From: an uncultured Gammaproteobacteria bacterium | GTDB lineage: Bacteria; Patescibacteriota; Microgenomatia; 2-02-FULL-39-11 | Length of the DNA: 64,000 nucleotides | Direction: 5' to 3' | Assembly: GCA_964354025.1 (NCBI GenBank) | Contig: CAYGXQ010000003.1 | Location: 16,888 to 80,887 of the forward strand | Shown here: one piece after another, positions 2,095 to 52,139 of the stretch | Layout of the letters: each line of letters starts with the position of its first letter | Position numbering within the stretch: position 1 is the first letter of the stretch | The notes under the pieces: model-generated | What the model was told of the DNA's origin: nothing | Databases searched by the model: none | The model's input: only the letters and a program-made list of their open reading frames with translations | Program-made: the position numbers and the translations under genes

Positions 2095-3660
2095 TTAACC
2101 ACCTTCTCCTTGTTGAGAAGCAGTAGCGGTAGATTCTTTATCCCATTGTTGGAAAAGCTGCAGCAGTAAAGCAAGCATACTTATTCCAATCATCGCTTTA
2201 TCTCCCCAATTTCTATTTTTGTGGAAAAGCAGAAGCTCATCTACTCGTTTTATCATTGTTCCTTTGTCAAGTTTATTCGGACGAGCTTGATATTGATCTA
2301 ATTTCACCATCTCGTCAACAATTTTATCCGGTGCAGGTATGAATTCTTTTAAAACTCGGCCGATGCCCGGTAAATTTTCCGGAGTACCGATTGCATTGAC
2401 AATTTGTTCTACCTGTAATCTGTTGATCACCGCATCTTTCCAGAATTGAGCGCTAATATTTGGCAATTCTGGAGCAAAAAGATTTACAAAAGCAGAAAGC
2501 TCTATTATTGGTTCTCTTGGAAGAGAAAATACAGCACCATATAATTTTCGGAGTTCTATTAATTTCTCTTTATTTTTTGTCGGGTCTAGTTTCAATCGCG
2601 TTTCGAGAATTCGTAAGGCTCCTTCAACAACCGGTCTGGTATACGGTTGATCAGCGGGGAAATATTTCGCTAAAGTAATAACGGTAAATGATTGCTTATC
2701 AAAAGAGGCATATTCTGGATCAGAAACTATATTCTCACACTCTTTAAGCAGGAATTCCTGAATTTTTTGGATAGTTTCTTTTTTTATTACTCCGTCTTCT
2801 TTGTAAACAAAACCATTGGCGTCAAAAACATCCCTTTCTTTTGCTTTTATTTCTTCAGCACCAGGCAGATAATCCACCAAGGCGCCAAATAATCTTTTCG
2901 CCTTTACCGCTCTTTGTGGTTGATTTTGATCTTCTCCAAGTCGCTCCAATCCTCCCAGAATTGGACCCACGCTATTGCGGACATAGATGGTTGTTCCAGT
3001 TCCATTTCCGTTTCCATCAAGCAAAACATAAGACTCGTCATCGGGATTATACCGGTAATGTTTATTTCTGATGCTCTCAACATCGTCGCGATGTTCCAAC
3101 ATTAGATACATTTCTACCTCTGCTTCTTGGCCAGGTTGTATTGGTTGTGGTGAAAGTTTTTTCCATTCTGTAAGTCTTTCTTTAATTTCTGTTTGAGCAG
3201 CTTCCAGTTTTTTATCCAATTCCCGCCTTTCTTTGGCAGCAGTGTTGATTTGCTTTCGTCTTTTAATTTCTTTGGCAAACAATTCATTATCATCAGTTTT
3301 TAAATAGTTAATAACAGAATCTCTATCTTCTTTCCAAAAACCGGCTTCACTGGCTAGCATGACGACGTGAACAGCGCCGTGAGGATCATCACCGAAAAGG
3401 GTCTCTATTTCTGTCCGGGTGAGAGTTCTACCTTCGATATTTAAGACATGTAAAACCGCCGGACCAAATTCATTGTCGTGAGACCTGTCAGGTTTTGGTT
3501 TAGGTTCAGGCGGAGGCGGTGGAGGTAGAGCTGCTGGCGCAGCCTCAGGAGGCGGTGGAGATGTGTCAATTGGAGGTGGATTTCCTCCTCCCACTGGTTC
3601 TCCTTCTGGACTTGTACTAACTGGTTGAGTGGGTTGTGTTGGTTGAGCAGTACTAGACAT
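2095..3660 (-). CDS. Hypothetical protein with Pro-rich N-terminus (PPPPPPEPKPKP); no recognisable domain
   Basis: Long ORF, host-like codon usage, divergent from the 3751 gene. Confidence 0.5.
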   Translation of the reverse strand: MSSTAQPTQPTQPVSTSPEGEPVGGGNPPPIDTSPPPPEAAPAALPPPPPPEPKPKPDRSHDNEFGPAVLHVLNIEGRTLTRTEIETLFGDDPHGAVHVVMLASEAGFWKEDRDSVINYLKTDDNELFAKEIKRRKQINTAAKERRELDKKLEAAQTEIKERLTEWKKLSPQPIQPGQEAEVEMYLMLEHRDDVESIRNKHYRYNPDDESYVLLDGNGNGTGTTIYVRNSVGPILGGLERLGEDQNQPQRAVKAKRLFGALVDYLPGAEEIKAKERDVFDANGFVYKEDGVIKKETIQKIQEFLLKECENIVSDPEYASFDKQSFTVITLAKYFPADQPYTRPVVEGALRILETRLKLDPTKNKEKLIELRKLYGAVFSLPREPIIELSAFVNLFAPELPNISAQFWKDAVINRLQVEQIVNAIGTPENLPGIGRVLKEFIPAPDKIVDEMVKLDQYQARPNKLDKGTMIKRVDELLLFHKNRNWGDKAMIGISMLALLLQLFQQWDKESTATASQQGEGG

Positions 3661-3750: not shown

Positions 3751-6132
3751 ATGGCACCTCAACCAGCACCACCAGCAGTAGTTACCAACAAACCTAAAGA
3801 AGGAGAGGTGGCTACTACATCTACACCGGAAGTAAAACCGACGCTATCAATAAAATATACGGAACTAAAGAAGATAGAAATACCTACCCTGGAACCTCCG
3901 AAACCCGTAGTGCTTGATGAGGACTGTATAAATACCCTTAAAAGTACCCTAGTCTATCACTTTCAGATATTAGAGCAGACAGCCGCTGGGTCACGGCCTG
4001 CTGCCGATACCTTACGCGGACAATTTTATGAACTGTTCAAAAGTGCCGTATTAAAGAAATACGGAAAAGTCGATTCAGAAAAACTGGAAGATTTATATAC
4101 CGTTGCTGAAGAGTTTATAAAAACAGGAGAAAGAGAAGGAGAAGGAAAAGGCGCGGCGATCAGATTAGCCTTAAAACTGGATGAATGGGAAGAAGCAACG
4201 CTTCAGGCAAAAACAGGGATAATGTTTAAAAATAAAAAAGCCATAAAAGAATGGCAGATTGATAAAATAAAGAGAAAAAGATGTAAAGCAACGAAAGAAG
4301 GCTTCGCAGTTGAAGAATATACTCCCTGGTATTTATCAAAATTTCGAAAAATCTCAAGACCGATCACCGGATATGAATATGAATTTGAAGGAGGGCGTAA
4401 TTTAAGTAACGTACTTCTTACACCCGAACAAACAGAATTTTTGATACAAGCGGGTTTGGATGTAGTCAACTTAACAGATAAACAAAAAGAACAGATTGAA
4501 GTCAGATTCAGTAATATCGCTGATCTAAGAATAAATTTATACTCTCAAACCGGACTTGAACAAAAGGATATCGAGTTGAATTTCATCAAAAAAGATCCAA
4601 CCAATGCAACCGGTAGAAATTATCGTGATAATAAGACAGCGCATTTAATTGGAGAGGTAAGCGCCGGTGGACCGTTGACTAATGTAAGAGAAATAATTGA
4701 GCAGGAGGGCACAGATATTGCACTGGACGTAAAAAAGAAAACAGAAGAGGAACTAGAGAAATTAAAAGCGAAACATGAAGCTGGTAGATTACGCGAAAGA
4801 ACTCATAAGCAGTTGGTTAAAAGAATCGCGGAAATCGATACAGAAGCCAAAGAGGAAATGGATGAGGATGAAAAAGTAAAAAAACAGACAGAACTGCAAA
4901 AAGAAATAGATAGGCTTAAAGAAGAATTGGCATTGTTTGGAAGAAAAAGCGCATTGCCAAATGAAATCGCTGAAGCTGAAAAAGCTCGTGATAAAGCTTC
5001 CGATCTAGTAACAGATCGCCAGACAAAAATAAAAGTTCCGGGTGAAGCATCGGTTGACCTAATTAAATGGGCGGGAGACCTGTCACAAACGGAAAGCTGG
5101 AAATATATCGAGATGCAATGCAAATTGCTTGAAAGACAAATGCAATTATTGAGAGAACAGCTAACAGAAGCTCGCGCTGGATTAAAAGAACACAATACCT
5201 CAAGGCCCCAAAGTGATCTTAGAAATATAATCCAGTATGATCCCAAAACCGGAGTCAAGGTAGCCGATGTTAAACCTGACCCGGTTGACGTAAAAGAAAA
5301 AGAAGAATTTTTAAGGATACAGGCAGAATTAAATAAGGAAATTGATGATTTAAAGAATAAAATCTATAAAGATTCATGGTCTGGAGGAACAAAACCTCTT
5401 GCAGAGTTAATACAAGAATTGACCGACCAGTATTCAAGAAGGAAAGCGGCAGTTGAGGATCCGGAAACCAAACAACTACTTGATGCATATATTGCTTGCG
5501 AAAAAGCAGTTGCAGATAAAACTAAGGAGCAAATAGAGGTCGAAGCTAAAGTTACTGCTTTAGCGGCTACAGCTGATGAAAAAGATGAACTGCAGATAAA
5601 AGCAAAGAAAAAGAAAGTACAGAAAGAAAAGGAGGTTGTTGGTGCTCCATCCGGCAAAGCTAAAACGGAAATGCAGGCCTTAACTGCTTTGGAAAAAATA
5701 TATACAACTCAAGGTGAAACCGATTTAAACAATCGCATAAAAGAAGCAGAGCAGGACTTATTAAAATTTGAGCTCAGTCCTAATTGGGAAAAATTTCCTC
5801 CGGTTATCCAGCGTTGCATTCAATTAATTTATGGAGATGATGTGAGAGAAACTTTCTTGACCGATAAAGATGCTTATGAGCAGGTGATGGCTTTGATGAC
5901 GTCAAAAAAATATTTGGATATATTTATAGACGCAATTGAATCTTCAGGAGCAGTAATTGCTGTTCTCGCTCCAAAAGCATCTGTTAATGCTGATGGGGTA
6001 TATGAACATGTTGATCAAGTGTTTCATGGGGCTACCATAGTGTCGAATACATTTCCTCTAAATATTATTAACGAAGAATTGATTAAAAAAATTGTTGATG
6101 GGTTAAGGAAGAAAGCCTTAAATATACCATGA
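3751..6132 (+). CDS. Hypothetical 793-aa protein, K/E-rich with long predicted coiled coils
   Basis: Long ORF; heptad-like charged repeats; no catalytic motif recognised. Confidence 0.5.
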   Translation: MAPQPAPPAVVTNKPKEGEVATTSTPEVKPTLSIKYTELKKIEIPTLEPPKPVVLDEDCINTLKSTLVYHFQILEQTAAGSRPAADTLRGQFYELFKSAVLKKYGKVDSEKLEDLYTVAEEFIKTGEREGEGKGAAIRLALKLDEWEEATLQAKTGIMFKNKKAIKEWQIDKIKRKRCKATKEGFAVEEYTPWYLSKFRKISRPITGYEYEFEGGRNLSNVLLTPEQTEFLIQAGLDVVNLTDKQKEQIEVRFSNIADLRINLYSQTGLEQKDIELNFIKKDPTNATGRNYRDNKTAHLIGEVSAGGPLTNVREIIEQEGTDIALDVKKKTEEELEKLKAKHEAGRLRERTHKQLVKRIAEIDTEAKEEMDEDEKVKKQTELQKEIDRLKEELALFGRKSALPNEIAEAEKARDKASDLVTDRQTKIKVPGEASVDLIKWAGDLSQTESWKYIEMQCKLLERQMQLLREQLTEARAGLKEHNTSRPQSDLRNIIQYDPKTGVKVADVKPDPVDVKEKEEFLRIQAELNKEIDDLKNKIYKDSWSGGTKPLAELIQELTDQYSRRKAAVEDPETKQLLDAYIACEKAVADKTKEQIEVEAKVTALAATADEKDELQIKAKKKKVQKEKEVVGAPSGKAKTEMQALTALEKIYTTQGETDLNNRIKEAEQDLLKFELSPNWEKFPPVIQRCIQLIYGDDVRETFLTDKDAYEQVMALMTSKKYLDIFIDAIESSGAVIAVLAPKASVNADGVYEHVDQVFHGATIVSNTFPLNIINEELIKKIVDGLRKKALNIP

Positions 6133-35316: not shown

Positions 35317-36414
35317 ATGACAAAAGCCAAAAGTACTATTTCTGATTCAGTGAAAGCCCTGATCAAAGAAGGCCGGGAAAACGGTTTTATCACCCAGGAT
35401 GAGATTTTGGTCATTTTCCCCAAACCCGAAGACCATCTTATTGAGCTGGATGAGCTTTACGCCCAACTTATCAAGGCCCAGATCGACGTTTTCGAGACTC
35501 TTTCCGATGAAGAAGAAAAAGAAGCCCAAAAAACCGTGACCGAGCTTGAGAAAGAACTGGAATCGTTGACGGTCATGCACGAAGGCGGGATTTCCGACCC
35601 CGTTAGGATGTATCTTAAAGAAATCGGCCGGACGCCGCTTCTGAAGTTTGCCGACGAGATCGATTTGGCCAAGCGTTACGAAAAAGGGGAAAGGGCCGCC
35701 AAACAAAAATTGATTGAATCCAACCTGCGGTTAGTCGTCTCTATCGCCAAGAAATACATCGGCCGCGGCCTTTCTCTTCTTGATCTTATCCAGGAAGGCA
35801 ACCAGGGCTTGATCAGGGCAGTGGAAAAATATGACTGGCGCAAAGGCTATAAGTTTTCCACTTACGCCACCTGGTGGATAAGACAGGCGATCACCAGAGC
35901 CATTGCCGATCAGGCCAGGACAATCCGCATTCCGGTCCATATGGTTGAGACGATTAACCGCTATTTGAAAATCTCAAGAAAGCTGATGCAGGAATTGGGC
36001 CGGGAGCCGATGCCTGAAGAAGTGGCTCAAGCGATGGAGATCGAAGTGGAAAAAGTCCGCGAGATAATGAAAGTCTCCCAGGAGCCGACTTCCCTGGCCA
36101 CCCCGGTTGGCGATGACGAAGACTCGCTTTTGGGTGATTTTATCCAGGATACCACCCAGCCGTCACCTTATGACTCCGCCTCAAGGGAGCTTTTGAAAGA
36201 ACACATTAACGAAGTTCTTCATACGCTTTCAGATCGGGAAAAAAGAGTTCTGATTTTACGTTTCGGTTTGGAAGACGGCCGGCCGCGGACTTTAGAAGAA
36301 GTCGGGGTTGAGTTTGGCGTTACCCGTGAGCGGATCAGACAGATAGAGGCAAAGGCCTTGAGAAAACTTAGACACCCCAGTAGATCTAAGAAATTAAAAG
36401 ACTATCTTGAATAA
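35317..36414 (+). CDS. rpoD: RNA polymerase sigma factor RpoD (sigma-70)
   Basis: Region 2 [37 protein letters not shown] and region 4 HTH. Confidence 0.9.
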
Positions 36415-44364: not shown

Positions 44365-45411
44365 ATGAATAAACTAGATTCACGATTAAAAGACATTCAG
44401 ACGGACATCTGGAAAGATATTGCTGCAATTGACGAGTTAAAAGGCAGATGGACGGCTGGTGCCCATTTTCATCCGCAGGTTTTGACCCGGCTAAAACGCT
44501 CCGTTCTAATTACTTCTACGGGAGCATCCACAAGAATAGAAGGAGCAAAATTATCCGATGAGGATATTGAGAAACTGATGAGAGGCATATCAATTGAAAA
44601 ATTTGCTGATAGGGATAAACAGGAGGTAAAAGGATATTTTGAACTGCTGCAAAATGTCTTTAATTCATGGCCAAGTCAAATTTTTAATGAAAGCGCGATT
44701 AAACACTTCCACAAAGAAATGTTGAAGTATGTGGAAAAGGATAAACAGCATAGAGGTAATTATAAAACCATGGAAAACAAGGTGCACATGATAAATGAAA
44801 AAAGCCAATCAATCGGTATTCTATTTAATACAACACCTGCTTACCTGACGCCTATTTATATGCAGGAATTGGTTGAATGGACCGTAAAAGCTTTAAAAGA
44901 AAAGTCTTATCATCCTATCCTTACAATAGGAAATTTCCTTGTTGAATTTCTGCAAATCCATCCGTTTCAGGATGGAAACGGCAGAATATCACGAATCCTG
45001 ACAAACCTTCTTTTACTTAAAGAAGGTTATTTGTATATGCCTTATGTTTCTCATGAGAAATTGATTGAGGATAATAAACCAGATTATTACCTGGCTTTGC
45101 GAAACAGCCAAAAAACATTCAAGACAAAGATTGGCCCATGGCTGCAATTCTTTGTAAAAATCTTGCTTTTACAATCACAAATTGCCGTAGATTTGCTGAC
45201 TTCTGAAACAATAGAAAAAATATTATCGCCAATACAACTAAAAGTATGGAATTATTTTCTGAAAGTAAAACAGGCAGCTCCGCTTGATATATCCAAAAAC
45301 TCCAATGTTGCTAGACCTACGGTTAATCAAGTTCTCTCTAAACTTCTAAAACTCAAGAAAATAGAGCGGATTGGGTTAGGAAGAAGCACAAGATACCGCT
45401 TGATTAAATAA
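44365..45411 (+). CDS. Class II Fic family protein (intramolecular inhibitory helix, C-terminal wHTH)
   Basis: HPFQDGNGRISR Fic motif; STRIEG inhibitory motif. Confidence 0.85.
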   Translation: MNKLDSRLKDIQTDIWKDIAAIDELKGRWTAGAHFHPQVLTRLKRSVLITSTGASTRIEGAKLSDEDIEKLMRGISIEKFADRDKQEVKGYFELLQNVFNSWPSQIFNESAIKHFHKEMLKYVEKDKQHRGNYKTMENKVHMINEKSQSIGILFNTTPAYLTPIYMQELVEWTVKALKEKSYHPILTIGNFLVEFLQIHPFQDGNGRISRILTNLLLLKEGYLYMPYVSHEKLIEDNKPDYYLALRNSQKTFKTKIGPWLQFFVKILLLQSQIAVDLLTSETIEKILSPIQLKVWNYFLKVKQAAPLDISKNSNVARPTVNQVLSKLLKLKKIERIGLGRSTRYRLIK

Positions 45412-47428: not shown

Positions 47429-47696
47429 CTCCCCCGGGAGGATTCGAACCTCCAACCTTCTTCTTACAAGTAACCTTTCGTTACCGAAAGACTTGGACTA
47501 TCTTATTCCCGATAATATCGGGATCGGGTATATAGTCTCTACACATTTATGATGCGCCGACTGGCGCGTCAATTTAGCTCGGGATAACCCCGATTCAATC
47601 GGGGGTCCCCCGAATTAGCCCGATTTTCCATCCCGATTTTCATCGGGACGCTGCCTTTTTCGACAGGAAGCCGCTCTACCATTGAGCTACAGGGGA
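47429..47696 (-). tRNA. tRNA-Asn(GUU) split by a group I intron; exons 47663-47696 and 47429-47466
   Basis: Spliced product UCCCCUGUAGCUCAAUGGUAGAGCGGCUUCCUGUUAAGAAGAAGGUUGGAGGUUCGAAUCCUCCCGGGGGAG folds as a canonical 72-nt cloverleaf and resembles E. coli tRNA-Asn (U1-A72, G73, loop CUGUUAA). Confidence 0.75.
47467..47662 (-). ncRNA. Group I (IC3-like) self-splicing intron, 196 nt, no ORF
   Basis: Follows exon U35 and ends in G. P1 pairs exon CUGU with intron GCAG; P2 is UCCCGAU-GAAA-AUCGGGA. The GUGUAGAGACUA...AAGAUAGUCC core resembles the Azoarcus tRNA-Ile and Anabaena tRNA-Leu introns. Confidence 0.65.
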
Positions 47697-47931
47697 ACGT
47701 AAGATTCGCCTTTGGCGAATCAACGTTCCACAACGTTTATCCCGATTAATCGGGATATTACGTTGGGAATATTAACGTACGATTGGCATTTTATCATCAA
47801 ATAGAGCATAAATCCACCCCATTATCTGCCGTTGTACATCTGCCTAACTAAATCTGATGGCAAACACTCCATATGGATGAATATTTTTCGGTATTTCCTA
47901 TATGGAGAGTAAGAATAAACAGTATTGAAAC

Positions 47932-49284
47932 TTATATAGTAACTTGATTTTCTACCTTTGTTTGAAATAGTTTTGCAATAGACACAGTATTGGGTATAAA
48001 TATGAATTTTTTCCCTGAATGAATTTTATCCAATAATTGTTTTTTTACTAAAAACATTAAATCTGATCTAGCGGTTTCGTAAGATAATCTGTTAATTGTT
48101 TTATAAGTAGTTATGTCAATAGTTTTATCTCTATTTGCATTCAATTCCTGCAATAGAGATGCTTGTCTTTCATTATATTCACCTAACTGGCCAGCGATCT
48201 TTTGAATAATTTTTTCTTTTTCAAGCTTGGTTTCATAATGGGCTATAAATTCTTTGATTGATAATACAATCGCTTTTAAAGAATAAGATAAAAAATAGGT
48301 TAAATCGTTTTCGTCATGTTCTGCATACAAATATGAATTATCATATTGTATTTTTGATTTTTTGATTATTCTTGAAACAGAAAGATACTGAAACAACCAA
48401 TAATTTTTTCTAAGTAAATACCAGTAAAATAAAGCCCTTGCGGTTCTACCGTTTCCATCTACAAACGGATGAAGATAGGCTAACCAAAAATGTAGAATAC
48501 TCGCTTTAATTACTGGATGAATAAACTCCTCTTCTAACTCATCTGAATTGGCAAAAATTATAAACTTTTCCAATTCTTTCTCCATGATATTGCCGGTCGG
48601 AGGAGTATACACTATTTCTCCGGTTAGCCTGTTTACAATATTTATTCCATCAGAATCAATTCTTAACCTACCGGAGTCAGCGTCATTCTCTAAAGTTCCG
48701 GCAGTAATATTTTTTTGAATATCCAGTAAGATATTTAAATTTAGTTTTAAATCTTTCCAGTCCATCAGTCTCTGCATGACTTGATAATTGTTTATAATCA
48801 TCTGTTCATCTCTGTTTCGGGCTTTTCTTTGGCTTAAAAGCATCTCCTTTGCTATTTTTCTTGAGGTATTTGCACCCTCAATCTGACTTGACGCGATTGC
48901 TTCTTCTGTTAAACTGTTTATTATCATTTGACTTTTTTGGGTAGCAGTTGGTTTCTCAGTAGTAGAACTTAAAAATCCACTCGTGTTAGAATCTATTAAA
49001 CTAAGCTTCTGATACATTGATTTAGTAATTGTAAATCTAAAATTTTGATTATTGCTGCCTCTTACAGGTGTAATTTCTGCGTTAGACATTCTTGAGAACT
49101 TTAAATAAGCCCAAGCTTCTTCTGGAGAAAATCCTTCTGGTATCGGATAGTGTTTGAATTTTTCCCAATAAACATATTCCTTATCAGCTTGCTTCACTAG
49201 TTCTCTTAAGCCATCTGAATGAACGGCTTTTTTTATCAGATCTTCTGTAAAATACCTAACCCAATTTGGTGGTCTAGCAATCAT
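47932..49284 (-). CDS. Class II Fic family protein (450 aa, Fic_N-like N-terminus, C-terminal wHTH)
   Basis: HPFVDGNGRTAR; SSQIEG inhibitory motif. Confidence 0.85.
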   Translation of the reverse strand: MIARPPNWVRYFTEDLIKKAVHSDGLRELVKQADKEYVYWEKFKHYPIPEGFSPEEAWAYLKFSRMSNAEITPVRGSNNQNFRFTITKSMYQKLSLIDSNTSGFLSSTTEKPTATQKSQMIINSLTEEAIASSQIEGANTSRKIAKEMLLSQRKARNRDEQMIINNYQVMQRLMDWKDLKLNLNILLDIQKNITAGTLENDADSGRLRIDSDGINIVNRLTGEIVYTPPTGNIMEKELEKFIIFANSDELEEEFIHPVIKASILHFWLAYLHPFVDGNGRTARALFYWYLLRKNYWLFQYLSVSRIIKKSKIQYDNSYLYAEHDENDLTYFLSYSLKAIVLSIKEFIAHYETKLEKEKIIQKIAGQLGEYNERQASLLQELNANRDKTIDITTYKTINRLSYETARSDLMFLVKKQLLDKIHSGKKFIFIPNTVSIAKLFQTKVENQVTI

Positions 49285-50018: not shown

Positions 50019-50127
50019 TGTTCCGGAGAGCTTATTATTATTTAAATTAAGATTTTAATTGAGGCTAAATTTTGAAAATATCTGGTGAATTACATAAAAT
50101 AGACATAAGACAAAACTTAACATCCTC

Positions 50128-50166
50128 TTGACAGATGTAAGGAATAGATTGTATAATCCTTACATC
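50128..50166 (+). promoter_or_regulatory. Promoter TTGACA-N18-(TG)TATAAT with 10-bp perfect inverted-repeat operator (GATGTAAGGA / TCCTTACATC) flanking the -10, upstream of Fic 50188
   Basis: Seen in sequence. Confidence 0.5.
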
Positions 50167-50187
50167 TAGTATAAAGATGTTAGGCTT

Positions 50188-51345
50188 ATGAAAATTGGTA
50201 AACTCGTCCAACAACCCAGTGGATATCAGGCATTTATCCCAAACAAGTTCCCTCCAGAGGAGCAGATTGCCCTGAGTTCTAAAACTCAGCAGCTTCACGC
50301 CAAGGCTGCCCTTATGCTGGGGAAGCTAGACGGTATTACCCAGTTATTGCCTGACCTCGATTTCTTCATTTTTATGTACATCCGTAAAGAAGCGGCCCGG
50401 TCAAGTGAGATTGAAGGTACCCAGGCAACTATTATTGATGTCATTAAAAGTGAGGCGCAAATTGAAAGTCGTTTTCCCCAAGATGTCGAGAGAATTGTCC
50501 ACTATATTCATGCGATGGAATATGGCTTAAAACGATTGGAAACTTTGCCGTTATCACTTCGGTTTATTCGGGAAATCCACAAGGTACTGATTAGCGGCAC
50601 TATTGACGCTCCTGGTAAAACACCGGGAGAGTTTAGGACTTCTCAAAACTGGATCGGCGGGGGTTCTCCTAATACTGCCAAATTTGTACCACCAACACAC
50701 GTAGAAATGAATCGATGTCTTGATGATTTTGAAAAGTTTCTGCACGCTACTGACGAATACCCACCACTTATTAAGGCGGCTTTGGCCCATGCCCAATTTG
50801 AGACAATCCACCCTTTCTTAGATGGTAATGGAAGAACAGGACGGCTCCTAACCACTTTTTATCTTTGTAAATTGGGGATTCTTGAGAGGCCAGTTCTTTA
50901 TCTTTCTGAATACTTTTTGAATAATCAAAAGACGTATTACGGATCATTGAATTCATATCATCAAGAAGAGGCTGACATCTCCGGATGGTTGGATTTCTTT
51001 TTAGATGGTGTGGCTATTATTGCTGCTGAAGCGATTGAAGCATCAAAAAAAATTAATGTCTTACGTCAAAAAGATACTATTAAAATTCAATCTTTGGGTC
51101 GAAGAATAAAAACAGGCATGATGGTATTAGAAAATCTCTATAAGCTGCCTATTATTAGTGTGCGAAAAGTTGAAGAATGGACAGAACTTTCTCGTCCTCA
51201 GGCCAACGACTTGGTTAAAAAGCTTGTAGAATTAGGAATTCTTGAACAAAGAGATAAAGATATTGAGTATGGTAGGGAATTTTGGTATAAAAAATATCTG
51301 GATTTGTTTGTAAGCAAAGAAGAAGTTAAAAAATCGAATGAATAA
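50188..51345 (+). CDS. Class II Fic family protein (Fic_N + Fic + wHTH)
   Basis: [12 protein letters not shown]; SSEIEG; GYQAFIP Fic_N motif. Confidence 0.85.
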   Translation: MKIGKLVQQPSGYQAFIPNKFPPEEQIALSSKTQQLHAKAALMLGKLDGITQLLPDLDFFIFMYIRKEAARSSEIEGTQATIIDVIKSEAQIESRFPQDVERIVHYIHAMEYGLKRLETLPLSLRFIREIHKVLISGTIDAPGKTPGEFRTSQNWIGGGSPNTAKFVPPTHVEMNRCLDDFEKFLHATDEYPPLIKAALAHAQFETIHPFLDGNGRTGRLLTTFYLCKLGILERPVLYLSEYFLNNQKTYYGSLNSYHQEEADISGWLDFFLDGVAIIAAEAIEASKKINVLRQKDTIKIQSLGRRIKTGMMVLENLYKLPIISVRKVEEWTELSRPQANDLVKKLVELGILEQRDKDIEYGREFWYKKYLDLFVSKEEVKKSNE

Positions 51346-52066
51346 ACCTGACTTTACCCTCGATAAAATAAAATTTGCATCTGATGGGCCAACATTTGAA
51401 AAAGCCGTAGCTTTGTATGAAAGCGGCAAAGTTATCCAAGTTGAAGAAGGTATCCGATCGTATACAGCCGTTGTTATGGGTACAAAACCATACCGCGTCT
51501 CGGTGGAAGCACAGAATTTTAGATATGCTTATTGTTCTTGTTATCTGGGTAAAAATGACACATATTGTAAACATATGTTGGCTTTGGCAATTTATGTGGT
51601 TCAAGACGGGAGGCCGTTAACCGATAATGATAAGAAACTGATACAAAATCCAGCTTGTAGTGGTAAATTGGGAACTTTATCAGGTAGCGAGCTATCAGCT
51701 ATAAAACATGCAATTTCTACTTCCCTACGTTACATCAAAGCTTATACTGGTCCGTCTCGTACTTGGTTTGCCTATCAAAACTCACTTTTCGAAGGTTGCA
51801 ATCGGCTATCTGCTATTATCTCCGATTTGCCAGTAAGTGTTCAAACAGCTGAGTTGTTGGTTGATATATTGTTGAGATTGGATAAGAAACTATGCACTGG
51901 CGGAGTTGATGACTCGGATGGTGAAGTGGGTGGATTCATTGAAGAAGCGGTGAGCGTGCTACAAGAATTTGTGAAATTGGATCCGAATTGTGTTAACGCT
52001 TTCGATAAGCTGAAAAAAAGAGAGATATGTTTTGGCTGGGAGGAATCTTTGTTGAAAACTTATTGA
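51338..52066 (+). CDS. SWIM zinc-finger domain protein, overlapping the Fic stop by 8 nt
   Basis: CSCYLGKNDTYCKH = CxCx9CxH. Confidence 0.7.
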   Translation: MNKPDFTLDKIKFASDGPTFEKAVALYESGKVIQVEEGIRSYTAVVMGTKPYRVSVEAQNFRYAYCSCYLGKNDTYCKHMLALAIYVVQDGRPLTDNDKKLIQNPACSGKLGTLSGSELSAIKHAISTSLRYIKAYTGPSRTWFAYQNSLFEGCNRLSAIISDLPVSVQTAELLVDILLRLDKKLCTGGVDDSDGEVGGFIEEAVSVLQEFVKLDPNCVNAFDKLKKREICFGWEESLLKTY

Positions 52067-52139
52067 TCAGTGTGCATTCCGGATATTCTAGGTAATTTAT
52101 CCAGATCTAACCAAATTTATCAAAACCGTGCCTGAAAGA

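Follow-up and report, generated by a model that had tools for sequence, protein, structure and literature searches.

A Fic-SWIM gene pair in a Patescibacteria contig as one instance of a SWIM family found behind interchangeable defence-type genes

On a Patescibacteria contig (CAYGXQ010000003.1), in the 64,000-nucleotide stretch analysed here (hereafter the window), a gene for a Fic protein overlaps a gene for a small protein with a SWIM zinc finger. The locus raises the question of whether the two genes form a dedicated module, as the first-pass annotation of this DNA had proposed (a target/immunity or regulatory partner of Fic, or a two-component toxin), or whether their junction has another origin. 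Here we report that the Fic-SWIM association is recurrent and non-random, and that it exemplifies a wider and, as far as can be seen, undescribed pattern, in which members of this SWIM family take the terminal position behind interchangeable defence-type genes. Literature searches yielded no paper that connects SWIM to Fic or RhuM. We favour, with confidence and doubt about evenly balanced, the reading that the locus is a mobile defence-island cassette of two separable, co-transcribed genes, in which SWIM is an independent rider; it was weighed against SWIM as a generic partner of exchangeable effectors, as a Fic-specific antitoxin and as part of a mobile-element backbone.

The Fic gene (50188..51345, plus strand) encodes 385 amino acids (aa) with Fic_N, a Fic core and a C-terminal winged helix-turn-helix (wHTH), and the SWIM-family gene (51338..52066, plus strand) encodes 242 aa. 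The two open reading frames (ORFs) have 8 nucleotides (nt) in common, ATGAATAA (51338..51345, plus strand), comprising the SWIM start codon and the Fic stop codon, exactly as first annotated. Promoter, Fic and SWIM together form a block of nucleotide homology with other genomes, the Fic-SWIM cassette (50088..52064, plus strand). By blastn, window positions 50088-52061 match positions 4751-6724 of L005 at 81.6% identity (loci from other genomes are cited by L numbers), and L002 yields matches to 50088-51335 and, separately, to 51338-52064. The identical 8-nt Fic/SWIM overlap is present in L005, L084, L085/86 and L088/90. Between the window and L005 the synonymous divergence (dS) is 1.43 for Fic and SWIM alike, and the ratio of nonsynonymous to synonymous divergence (dN/dS) is 0.02 for Fic and 0.09 for SWIM; these low ratios indicate that both genes are real and constrained by purifying selection. 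In L002 (5559-5999), L007 (262-702) and also L082 and L083, a 146-aa ORF without a Pfam family lies between Fic and SWIM and ends 1 nt ahead of the SWIM start; in L007 the Fic gene 5' of this ORF is cut to a remnant of about 30 codons. A 96-aa ORF (cluster c26) occupies the matching position in L022, L072 and L074.

The neighbours of SWIM were scored in a census of 80 species-genome loci, with the upstream gene available in 72 and the downstream gene in 73. The upstream gene is co-directional with SWIM in 67/72 loci, compared with 339/484 in the background. Its Pfam families are RhuM (10), ResIII (6), Fic (5), HsdS (3), HSDR_N (3) and DUF4143 ATPase (2), KilA-N (2) and AbiEii, GmrSD and DNA methylase (1 each); HsdS, HsdR or Res stands directly upstream in about 10 of the 72. 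Fic or a Fic remnant is found one small ORF away from SWIM in three more loci (L002, L007 and L072). The Fic motif is carried by 9 of the 705 ORFs in SWIM loci, 4 of which directly precede SWIM; the Fic next to SWIM in L041, the fifth such neighbour, does not have the motif in its strict form. Fic precedes SWIM homologues far above chance, and at least two Fic subfamilies are involved. The Fic gene directly ahead of SWIM in L043 and L052 is about 65-68% identical in DNA to a 348-aa Fic paralogue (Fic + wHTH) of the window, which itself is not followed by SWIM. Of the neighbours on the upstream side, about 40% are of defence type and about half have no recognisable defence or toxin domain; some SWIM genes lie amid housekeeping genes. 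Genes downstream of SWIM are heterogeneous and frequently housekeeping (MnmA, S12, YceG, Mur ligase). Helicase-type neighbours are in the minority, with ResIII upstream in 6/72 loci and a RecD-like gene downstream in 3/73.

Spacing was assessed as the share of gaps of at most 25 nt, with the other co-directional gene pairs of the same SWIM loci as background. Such gaps precede SWIM in 31/67 loci and occur in 141/339 background pairs (p = 0.5), so that tight spacing is ordinary in these genomes. Translational coupling as a special signature of the pair was rejected on these figures. Downstream of SWIM only 10/61 gaps are this short, which indicates that SWIM is usually the last gene of its unit. 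The distant SWIM subfamily likewise resides in restriction-modification (R-M) or toxin-antitoxin islands, one locus having AbiEi_2, HipA and TacT, and in L161 RhuM and SWIM form a free-standing pair. In a Peregrinibacteria contig (L162/L163, 1-7571) a member of this distant subfamily closes a type I R-M operon, hsdM-hsdS-KAP_NTPase-SWIM, with a 4-nt gap, and this operon faces a RloB + AAA_21 pair. The window ORFs scanned for domains, those between 35 and 57 kb, include no R-M gene.

A second census started from Fic and covered 80 metagenome loci with relatives of the window Fic. SWIM directly follows Fic in L082-L086, L088 and L090, in all of which Fic is at least 92% identical to that of the window. 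About five distinct Fic-SWIM cassettes can be told apart: L005/L085/L086; L084; L088/L090; the window; and L002/L082/L083, where the 146-aa ORF lies between the genes. Beyond this clade, 0/39 SoFic-like relatives (55-88% identity, each with at least 800 nt of 3' sequence) have SWIM directly downstream. In this census the pair recurs only within a narrow Fic clade. In L147 a SWIM gene lies 2.4 kb from Fic on the opposite strand. Two close relatives keep Fic after loss of SWIM. L081 has an intact, 96%-identical Fic with its catalytic motif, followed about 85 nt on by only the first 27 nt of SWIM (ATGAATTTACCTGACTTTACC...TAA), and L087 has an intact, 92%-identical Fic without SWIM, followed directly by a recombinase scar. 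A gene for an essential antitoxin would not disappear while Fic remained intact.

The junction between SWIM and its upstream gene has been reshuffled. In a neighbour-joining tree of SWIM proteins, RhuM-linked and Fic-linked members interleave within the window clade (at least 76% identity), and the closest relative of the window SWIM protein (L001, 87%) sits behind RhuM; RhuM and Fic are interchangeable at the same position ahead of SWIM. Between L005 and L002 dS is 0.18 for Fic and 0.78 for SWIM, and between L001 and L003 it is 0.60 for RhuM and 1.10 for SWIM, a discordance across partner genes that marks the junction as a recombination point. The pair also travels intact. Identity between L005 and L084 is 94.8% across exactly 1998 nt, a stretch that opens about 128 nt before the Fic start and closes at the SWIM stop; the flanks are unrelated, and the Fic-SWIM pair moves as a unit of about 2 kb between candidate-phyla-radiation bacteria.

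Four lineages have rpoD upstream of SWIM: the window (35317-36414, plus strand), L002 (785-1873), L005 (2561-3658) and L019 (4010-5080). The distance from rpoD to SWIM is 1.2-2.5 kb in L002, L005 and L019 and 14 kb in the window. For rpoD the proportion of synonymous differences (pS) is 0.83-0.91, which is saturated, with dN of about 0.3, against a pS of 0.16-0.64 for the cassette in the same genomes. Since the cassette has diverged much less than rpoD, it has been exchanged horizontally, and its vertical inheritance beside rpoD was rejected. Between rpoD and SWIM the window seems to carry a variable island that has expanded. The interval is made up of accessory genes, among them those for a Schlafen/AlbA_2 protein and for ArsP and LysE transporters, and two further Fic genes, at 44365-45411 (plus strand) and 47932-49284 (minus strand), both less than 6 kb upstream of the pair, which makes three Fic paralogues in 7 kb.

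The SWIM gene is accessory and patchily distributed across Patescibacteria. The family counts roughly 2,300 members. A set of 5.8 billion proteins held 1,668 relatives, and the best 120 of these are all at least 66% identical and come from many Patescibacteria lineages. Across the 80 best genome loci, again from many lineages of this group, the family is 55-87% identical, and 135 of 185,579 species-representative genomes matched the SWIM search patterns. An exhaustive HMMER scan gave 312 clusters at 50% identity, almost all of them stand-alone proteins of about 240 aa. Rare longer members (P0123 and P0124) have the whole SWIM/VDDSDG protein fused to DUF3201 or to a C-terminal Xre-type helix-turn-helix. 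Searches of 2.9 million viral contigs and of 72,556 plasmids gave no relative of SWIM, PHROGs held no match to the SWIM protein, and an exact-sequence look-up of the window protein returned no record.

The only family match of the window SWIM protein is Pfam SWIM (PF04434), at 21.5 bits against a gathering cut-off of 19.6. Conservation was read from 38 diverse members, of which 37 match Pfam SWIM. The zinc-finger signature C66-x-C68-x8-C77-x-H79 is invariant among them, as are Y52, Y69, W143, L150 and D191-D192-S193-x-G195. The spacing of the finger is CxCx8CxH and not CxCx9CxH, as first annotated. AlphaFold2 gave a confident model (predicted local distance difference test, pLDDT, 95.7; predicted template modelling score, pTM, 0.90), in which an N-terminal extended SWIM finger (residues about 8-90) is predicted to run helix-helix, four strands, zinc knuckle and helix, and a predicted C-terminal all-helical domain (about 116-241) would bear the invariant VDDSDG motif. 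At E <= 1, Pfam recognised only SWIM in the 38 members, and no counterpart of the helical/VDDSDG domain was found in Pfam, PDB or BFVD. When PDB and BFVD were searched by sequence and by fold, only SWIM proteins (ZSWIM8, giant-virus and phage) came back, matched via the finger. The (S/T)xxxE(G/N) motif is absent from the SWIM protein. A look-alike at S149-L-F-E152-G153 (SLxEG) was considered as a trans-inhibitory Fic motif and rejected, as its spacing falls short by one residue and the distant subfamily does not conserve it.

The Fic protein is predicted to be a full-length class II SoFic-like AMPylase. It matches Pfam Fic_N (6e-22, residues 36-114) and Fic (3e-21), with a weak MarR_2 wHTH match at 312-355, inside a wHTH of residues about 300-385. 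The catalytic motif HxFx(D/E)GNGRxxR is present from H208 to R219, and H208, P209, F210, D212, G213, N214, G215, R216 and R219 are invariant across 26 relatives. The inhibitory motif (S/T)xxxE(G/N) takes the form S72-S-E-I-E76-G77 within Fic_N, with S72, E76 and G77 invariant in the same 26 relatives; the inhibitory helix and C-terminal wHTH first annotated for this protein were thus confirmed in a SoFic-like protein of full length. Residues 12-374 align with positions 5-358 of 361 of the PADLOC SoFic model (363.5 bits, 3.6e-109), and the closest solved structures are the S. oneidensis SoFic entries (query 38-373, E 2e-33). The score against the NCBIfam SoFic equivalog NF046030 is 161.7 bits and does not reach the cut-off of 550, which places the protein as a distant member of the SoFic family and not an orthologue.

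Upstream of Fic lies a promoter with an operator (50116..50184, plus strand). The -35 hexamer TTGACA (50128-50133) and the -10 hexamer TATAAT (50152-50157), separated by an 18-nt spacer, form the sole 12/12 promoter match in the region; a TG directly abuts the -10 hexamer, and there is accordingly no canonical TGn extended -10. Both the textbook TTGACA-N18 promoter and the 10-bp perfect inverted repeat of the first-pass annotation were found in place, the repeat consisting of GATGTAAGGA (50134-50143) and TCCTTACATC (50157-50166). With the outer half-sites CTTAACATC (50116-50124) and GATGTTAGG (50176-50184, at the ribosome-binding site), the window operator has four half-sites of alternating orientation. 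One arm lies between -35 and -10, upstream of any transcript, which identifies the repeat as a DNA operator and not an RNA hairpin. An alignment shows -35, -10 and repeat kept upstream of 11 related Fic genes, 6 of them without SWIM. In 70 distinct upstream regions of Fic relatives (55-96% identical), an inverted repeat with at least 8/9 matches and a 12-18 nt spacer was found in 61, compared with 3/70 shuffled sequences. The half-site cores vary in both arms jointly (AAGG, TAGG, TACA, TAAG, CAAG, TATGG, AAAC, GAAC); L097, for example, has the variant GTTACA and L137 the variant GTCAAG. Promoter and operator go with Fic alone, whether SWIM is present or not. Fic's own wHTH is the only DNA-binding domain consistently encoded near the operator, and we infer that Fic may regulate itself by binding there through this domain. 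The covarying, multi-half-site operator predicts that the C-terminal winged helix of SoFic-type proteins, hitherto unexplained, serves to repress their own promoter.

The right border of the cassette carries the degenerate C-terminal tail of a large serine recombinase gene (...WINYLEYPECT...; 52068..52118, minus strand), convergent with SWIM. It belongs to a conserved element of about 100 nt right after the SWIM stop, whose minus strand reads as a protein tail (...LEKWEDFRTIDWINYLEYPEYTLKEISHFLHT, then stop), and which lies 3' of SWIM in L001-L004, L006, L010 and L056 and is degenerate in the window. Tail scars flank Fic cassettes on both sides in L084 (3777-3902 and 5909-5998), in L092 (2875-3114 and 4677-4811) and in L087, where there are three (2246-2395, 3290-3442 and 5315-5380). 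Longer versions of the tail extend into a further sequence; in L168 this is the frameshifted C-terminus of a gene in which Resolvase, Recombinase and Zn_ribbon_recom pieces stand ahead of the tail. Judged by this full-length context, large serine recombinase genes are the source of the scars, which mark the traffic of mobile elements. An integron-like attC was also considered for the repeated border element and rejected, as the element is protein-like and corresponds to a serine recombinase tail. Just one of the 80 loci (L026) has an intact serine recombinase no more than 6 kb from SWIM, and the tail had no match in phage records. Tail scars (...DWxNYLEYPEYT.KE..FL, then stop) separate small cargo cassettes, namely Fic-SWIM, a methyltransferase and TspO+Fic, an arrangement that looks like tandem accretion of recombinase-borne elements.

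At the left, the cassette of L005 abuts the 3' end of a tRNA-Asn gene (tRNA at 4654-4726), and about 10 nt resembling this end (GGGAGCACT) remain at the left borders of L002, L081, L084 and L088, which suggests an old tRNA-end integration site. The window has tRNA-like pieces of its own at 47431-47700 (minus strand), consisting of a T-arm with acceptor end (GGTTCGAATCCTCCCGGGGGAGCA) and, some 200 nt from it, what may be a 5' half; L002 (3919-4014) conserves about 96 nt of this stretch. ARAGORN detected no tRNA anywhere in the 64-kb window and Rfam nothing at 44-54 kb, and the pieces could be an intron-containing or disrupted tRNA.

In the independent-rider reading, a Fic dimer would bind the palindromic half-sites around -35/-10 and over the ribosome-binding site and so repress its own promoter, and Fic would by homology to SoFic exert an abortive-infection-type toxicity through AMPylation. 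SWIM has no promoter of its own here, and the 8-nt overlap would guarantee its co-expression with Fic. More widely, SWIM typically rides last in a co-directional unit behind RhuM, Fic, KilA-N, KAP NTPase or type I/III restriction subunits, the Fic-SWIM junction of the window being one outcome of cassette shuffling at such sites. SWIM occurs without Fic and Fic without SWIM, and in this reading neither gene needs the other. SWIM would most likely be an autonomous defence-island factor that acts on a conserved macromolecule (DNA, or a host or phage protein), and, judging from domain type and conservation, it would do so via the zinc finger and a conserved helical pocket. Several observations weigh against this reading. 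Fic and RhuM account for about a fifth to a quarter of SWIM upstream neighbours, and this share of two proposed protein-modifying toxins, which substitute for one another in R-M loci (PMC3710099), hints at a functional link over mere co-location. Even at a dS of about 1.4, all cassettes of the clade retain the 8-nt overlap, Fic and SWIM are transferred together, and a downstream modulator has a precedent in the E. coli Sofic antitoxin gene AS1 (PMC12249575).

A possible account, clearly less probable than the rider, is that there is a two-gene defence family with a swappable effector (Fic, RhuM, KilA-N-type or KAP NTPase), in which SWIM serves as the conserved sensor, adaptor or regulator; the more specific proposal that the SWIM/VDDSDG protein is the partner-independent part (sensor, adaptor or antitoxin-like brake) of an unrecognised two-gene Patescibacteria defence family is held equally tentatively. 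RhuM (10) and Fic (5, and a further 3 separated from SWIM by a small ORF) are the top upstream neighbours, and they swap inside one SWIM clade, mirroring their interchangeability in R-M loci (PMC3710099). The excess of co-directional loci (67/72 against 339/484), the usual place of SWIM as the unit's last gene, the RhuM-SWIM pair alone in L161 and the transfer of Fic-SWIM as a pair would fit as well. Such a partnership is harder to reconcile with the lack of partner-specific SWIM clades, with a SWIM conservation exceeding that expected if it were fitted to unrelated partners, and with an upstream spacing no tighter than background. Around half of the upstream neighbours have no defence or toxin domain, and some SWIM genes are in a housekeeping context; Fic stays intact after SWIM loss, nearly all SoFic-like relatives lack SWIM, and SoFic is catalogued as a single-gene system (PMC12249575). 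The dedicated toxin-antitoxin or immunity pair first proposed, in which SWIM would neutralise or control Fic in the manner of FicT-FicA or Sofic-AS1, we consider improbable. It could draw on the stoichiometric co-expression implied by the overlap, on the downstream antitoxin of E. coli Sofic and on the toxicity of wild-type Sofic despite its inhibitory helix (both PMC12249575). Against it, L081, with its stub of SWIM, and L087 keep an intact Fic with the catalytic motif, the 39 distant relatives have no SWIM directly downstream, many unrelated genes (RhuM and R-M genes among them) precede SWIM, and the dS of Fic and SWIM is discordant. The Fic is class II with its own S72xxxE76G77 helix, and SWIM offers no (S/T)xxxE(G/N) in trans, SLxEG at 149-153 being one residue short and unconserved in the distant subfamily. 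A pairing so promiscuous and dispensable makes a Fic-specific antitoxin unlikely.

Least probable of all, in our estimate, is that SWIM belongs to the serine-recombinase machinery, for example as a recombination directionality factor (RDF) or regulator, with Fic and RhuM as cargo. The size range of known serine-integrase RDFs includes about 28 kDa, the approximate size of SWIM, and a conserved gene beside variable cargo would fit. The recombinase 3' remnant lies next to SWIM, convergent, in the window, L001-L004, L006 and L056, and in the flanks in L084, L087 and L092. This remnant is, however, mainly confined to the window's SWIM clade, the scars of L087 surround cassettes without SWIM, an intact serine recombinase was close by only in L026, and the viral contigs and plasmids searched held no SWIM relative. 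We retain the separable rider as the preferred reading.

Fic and RhuM toxins are widespread in defence islands and poorly understood, and we know of no demonstrated activity of RhuM. The SWIM family, conserved, with a confident predicted fold and found behind Fic and RhuM, is a concrete and cheap candidate for tests of toxin control or phage sensing. If SWIM were a generic partner, it would be a hyper-promiscuous companion of protein-modifying toxins and a first functional handle on RhuM. The recombinase tail scars suggest how small defence cassettes are swapped among the tiny genomes of the candidate phyla radiation. If none of these accounts holds, the pair is one more shuffled defence-island cassette.

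Known bacterial SWIM domains lie at the N-terminus of SNF2-type helicases or beside them, and the SWIM-containing N-termini of such proteins align with the first 90 or so residues of the window protein (PADLOC PDC-S62 2e-13 and DpdE 5e-4, NCBIfam pilus_reg_Snf2 0.0024); unlike them, it has no helicase domain, and its C-terminal domain is a separate helical fold with VDDSDG. Among solved chains, ZSWIM8 (PDB 9RWZ) alone gave a significant match by sequence, and in both proteins a SWIM finger is followed by helices, arranged as helical repeats in ZSWIM8. The match is confined to the SWIM region (profile 17-95), ZSWIM8 as the top fold match is non-significant (Foldseek E 0.065), and, unlike in ZSWIM8 and other eukaryotic SWIM adaptors, there is no sign of a ubiquitin-ligase context. 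On the Fic side, SoFic (S. oneidensis SO_4266; a single-gene system in PADLOC and DefenseFinder; PDB 3EQX, 3ZCN and 9TCL) shares its architecture with the window Fic from end to end, and most relatives of the window Fic likewise stand alone. Unlike SoFic, the window Fic lies under the equivalog cut-off and has a conserved multi-half-site operator, and its narrow clade carries the overlapping downstream SWIM. E. coli Sofic is toxic and is counteracted by AS1, a 47-aa downstream protein (PMC12249575). This Sofic-AS1 system of E. coli H397 has in common with the window pair a SoFic-type toxin with a downstream gene, which in the case of AS1 modulates toxicity; SWIM, in contrast, is 242 aa long and combines a zinc finger with a helical domain; close relatives can dispense with it, and it is promiscuous in its partners. 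In R-M loci, RhuM-like proteins stand where Fic/Doc toxins otherwise do, and their fusion to Doc is frequent (PMC3710099). The R-M-embedded Fic/Doc and RhuM toxins of Anantharaman et al. 2013 (PMC3710099) show the same replacement of RhuM and Fic as seen ahead of SWIM, where R-M subunits are frequent neighbours. Those loci were described without SWIM, whereas RhuM-SWIM and Fic-SWIM occur also as free-standing pairs.

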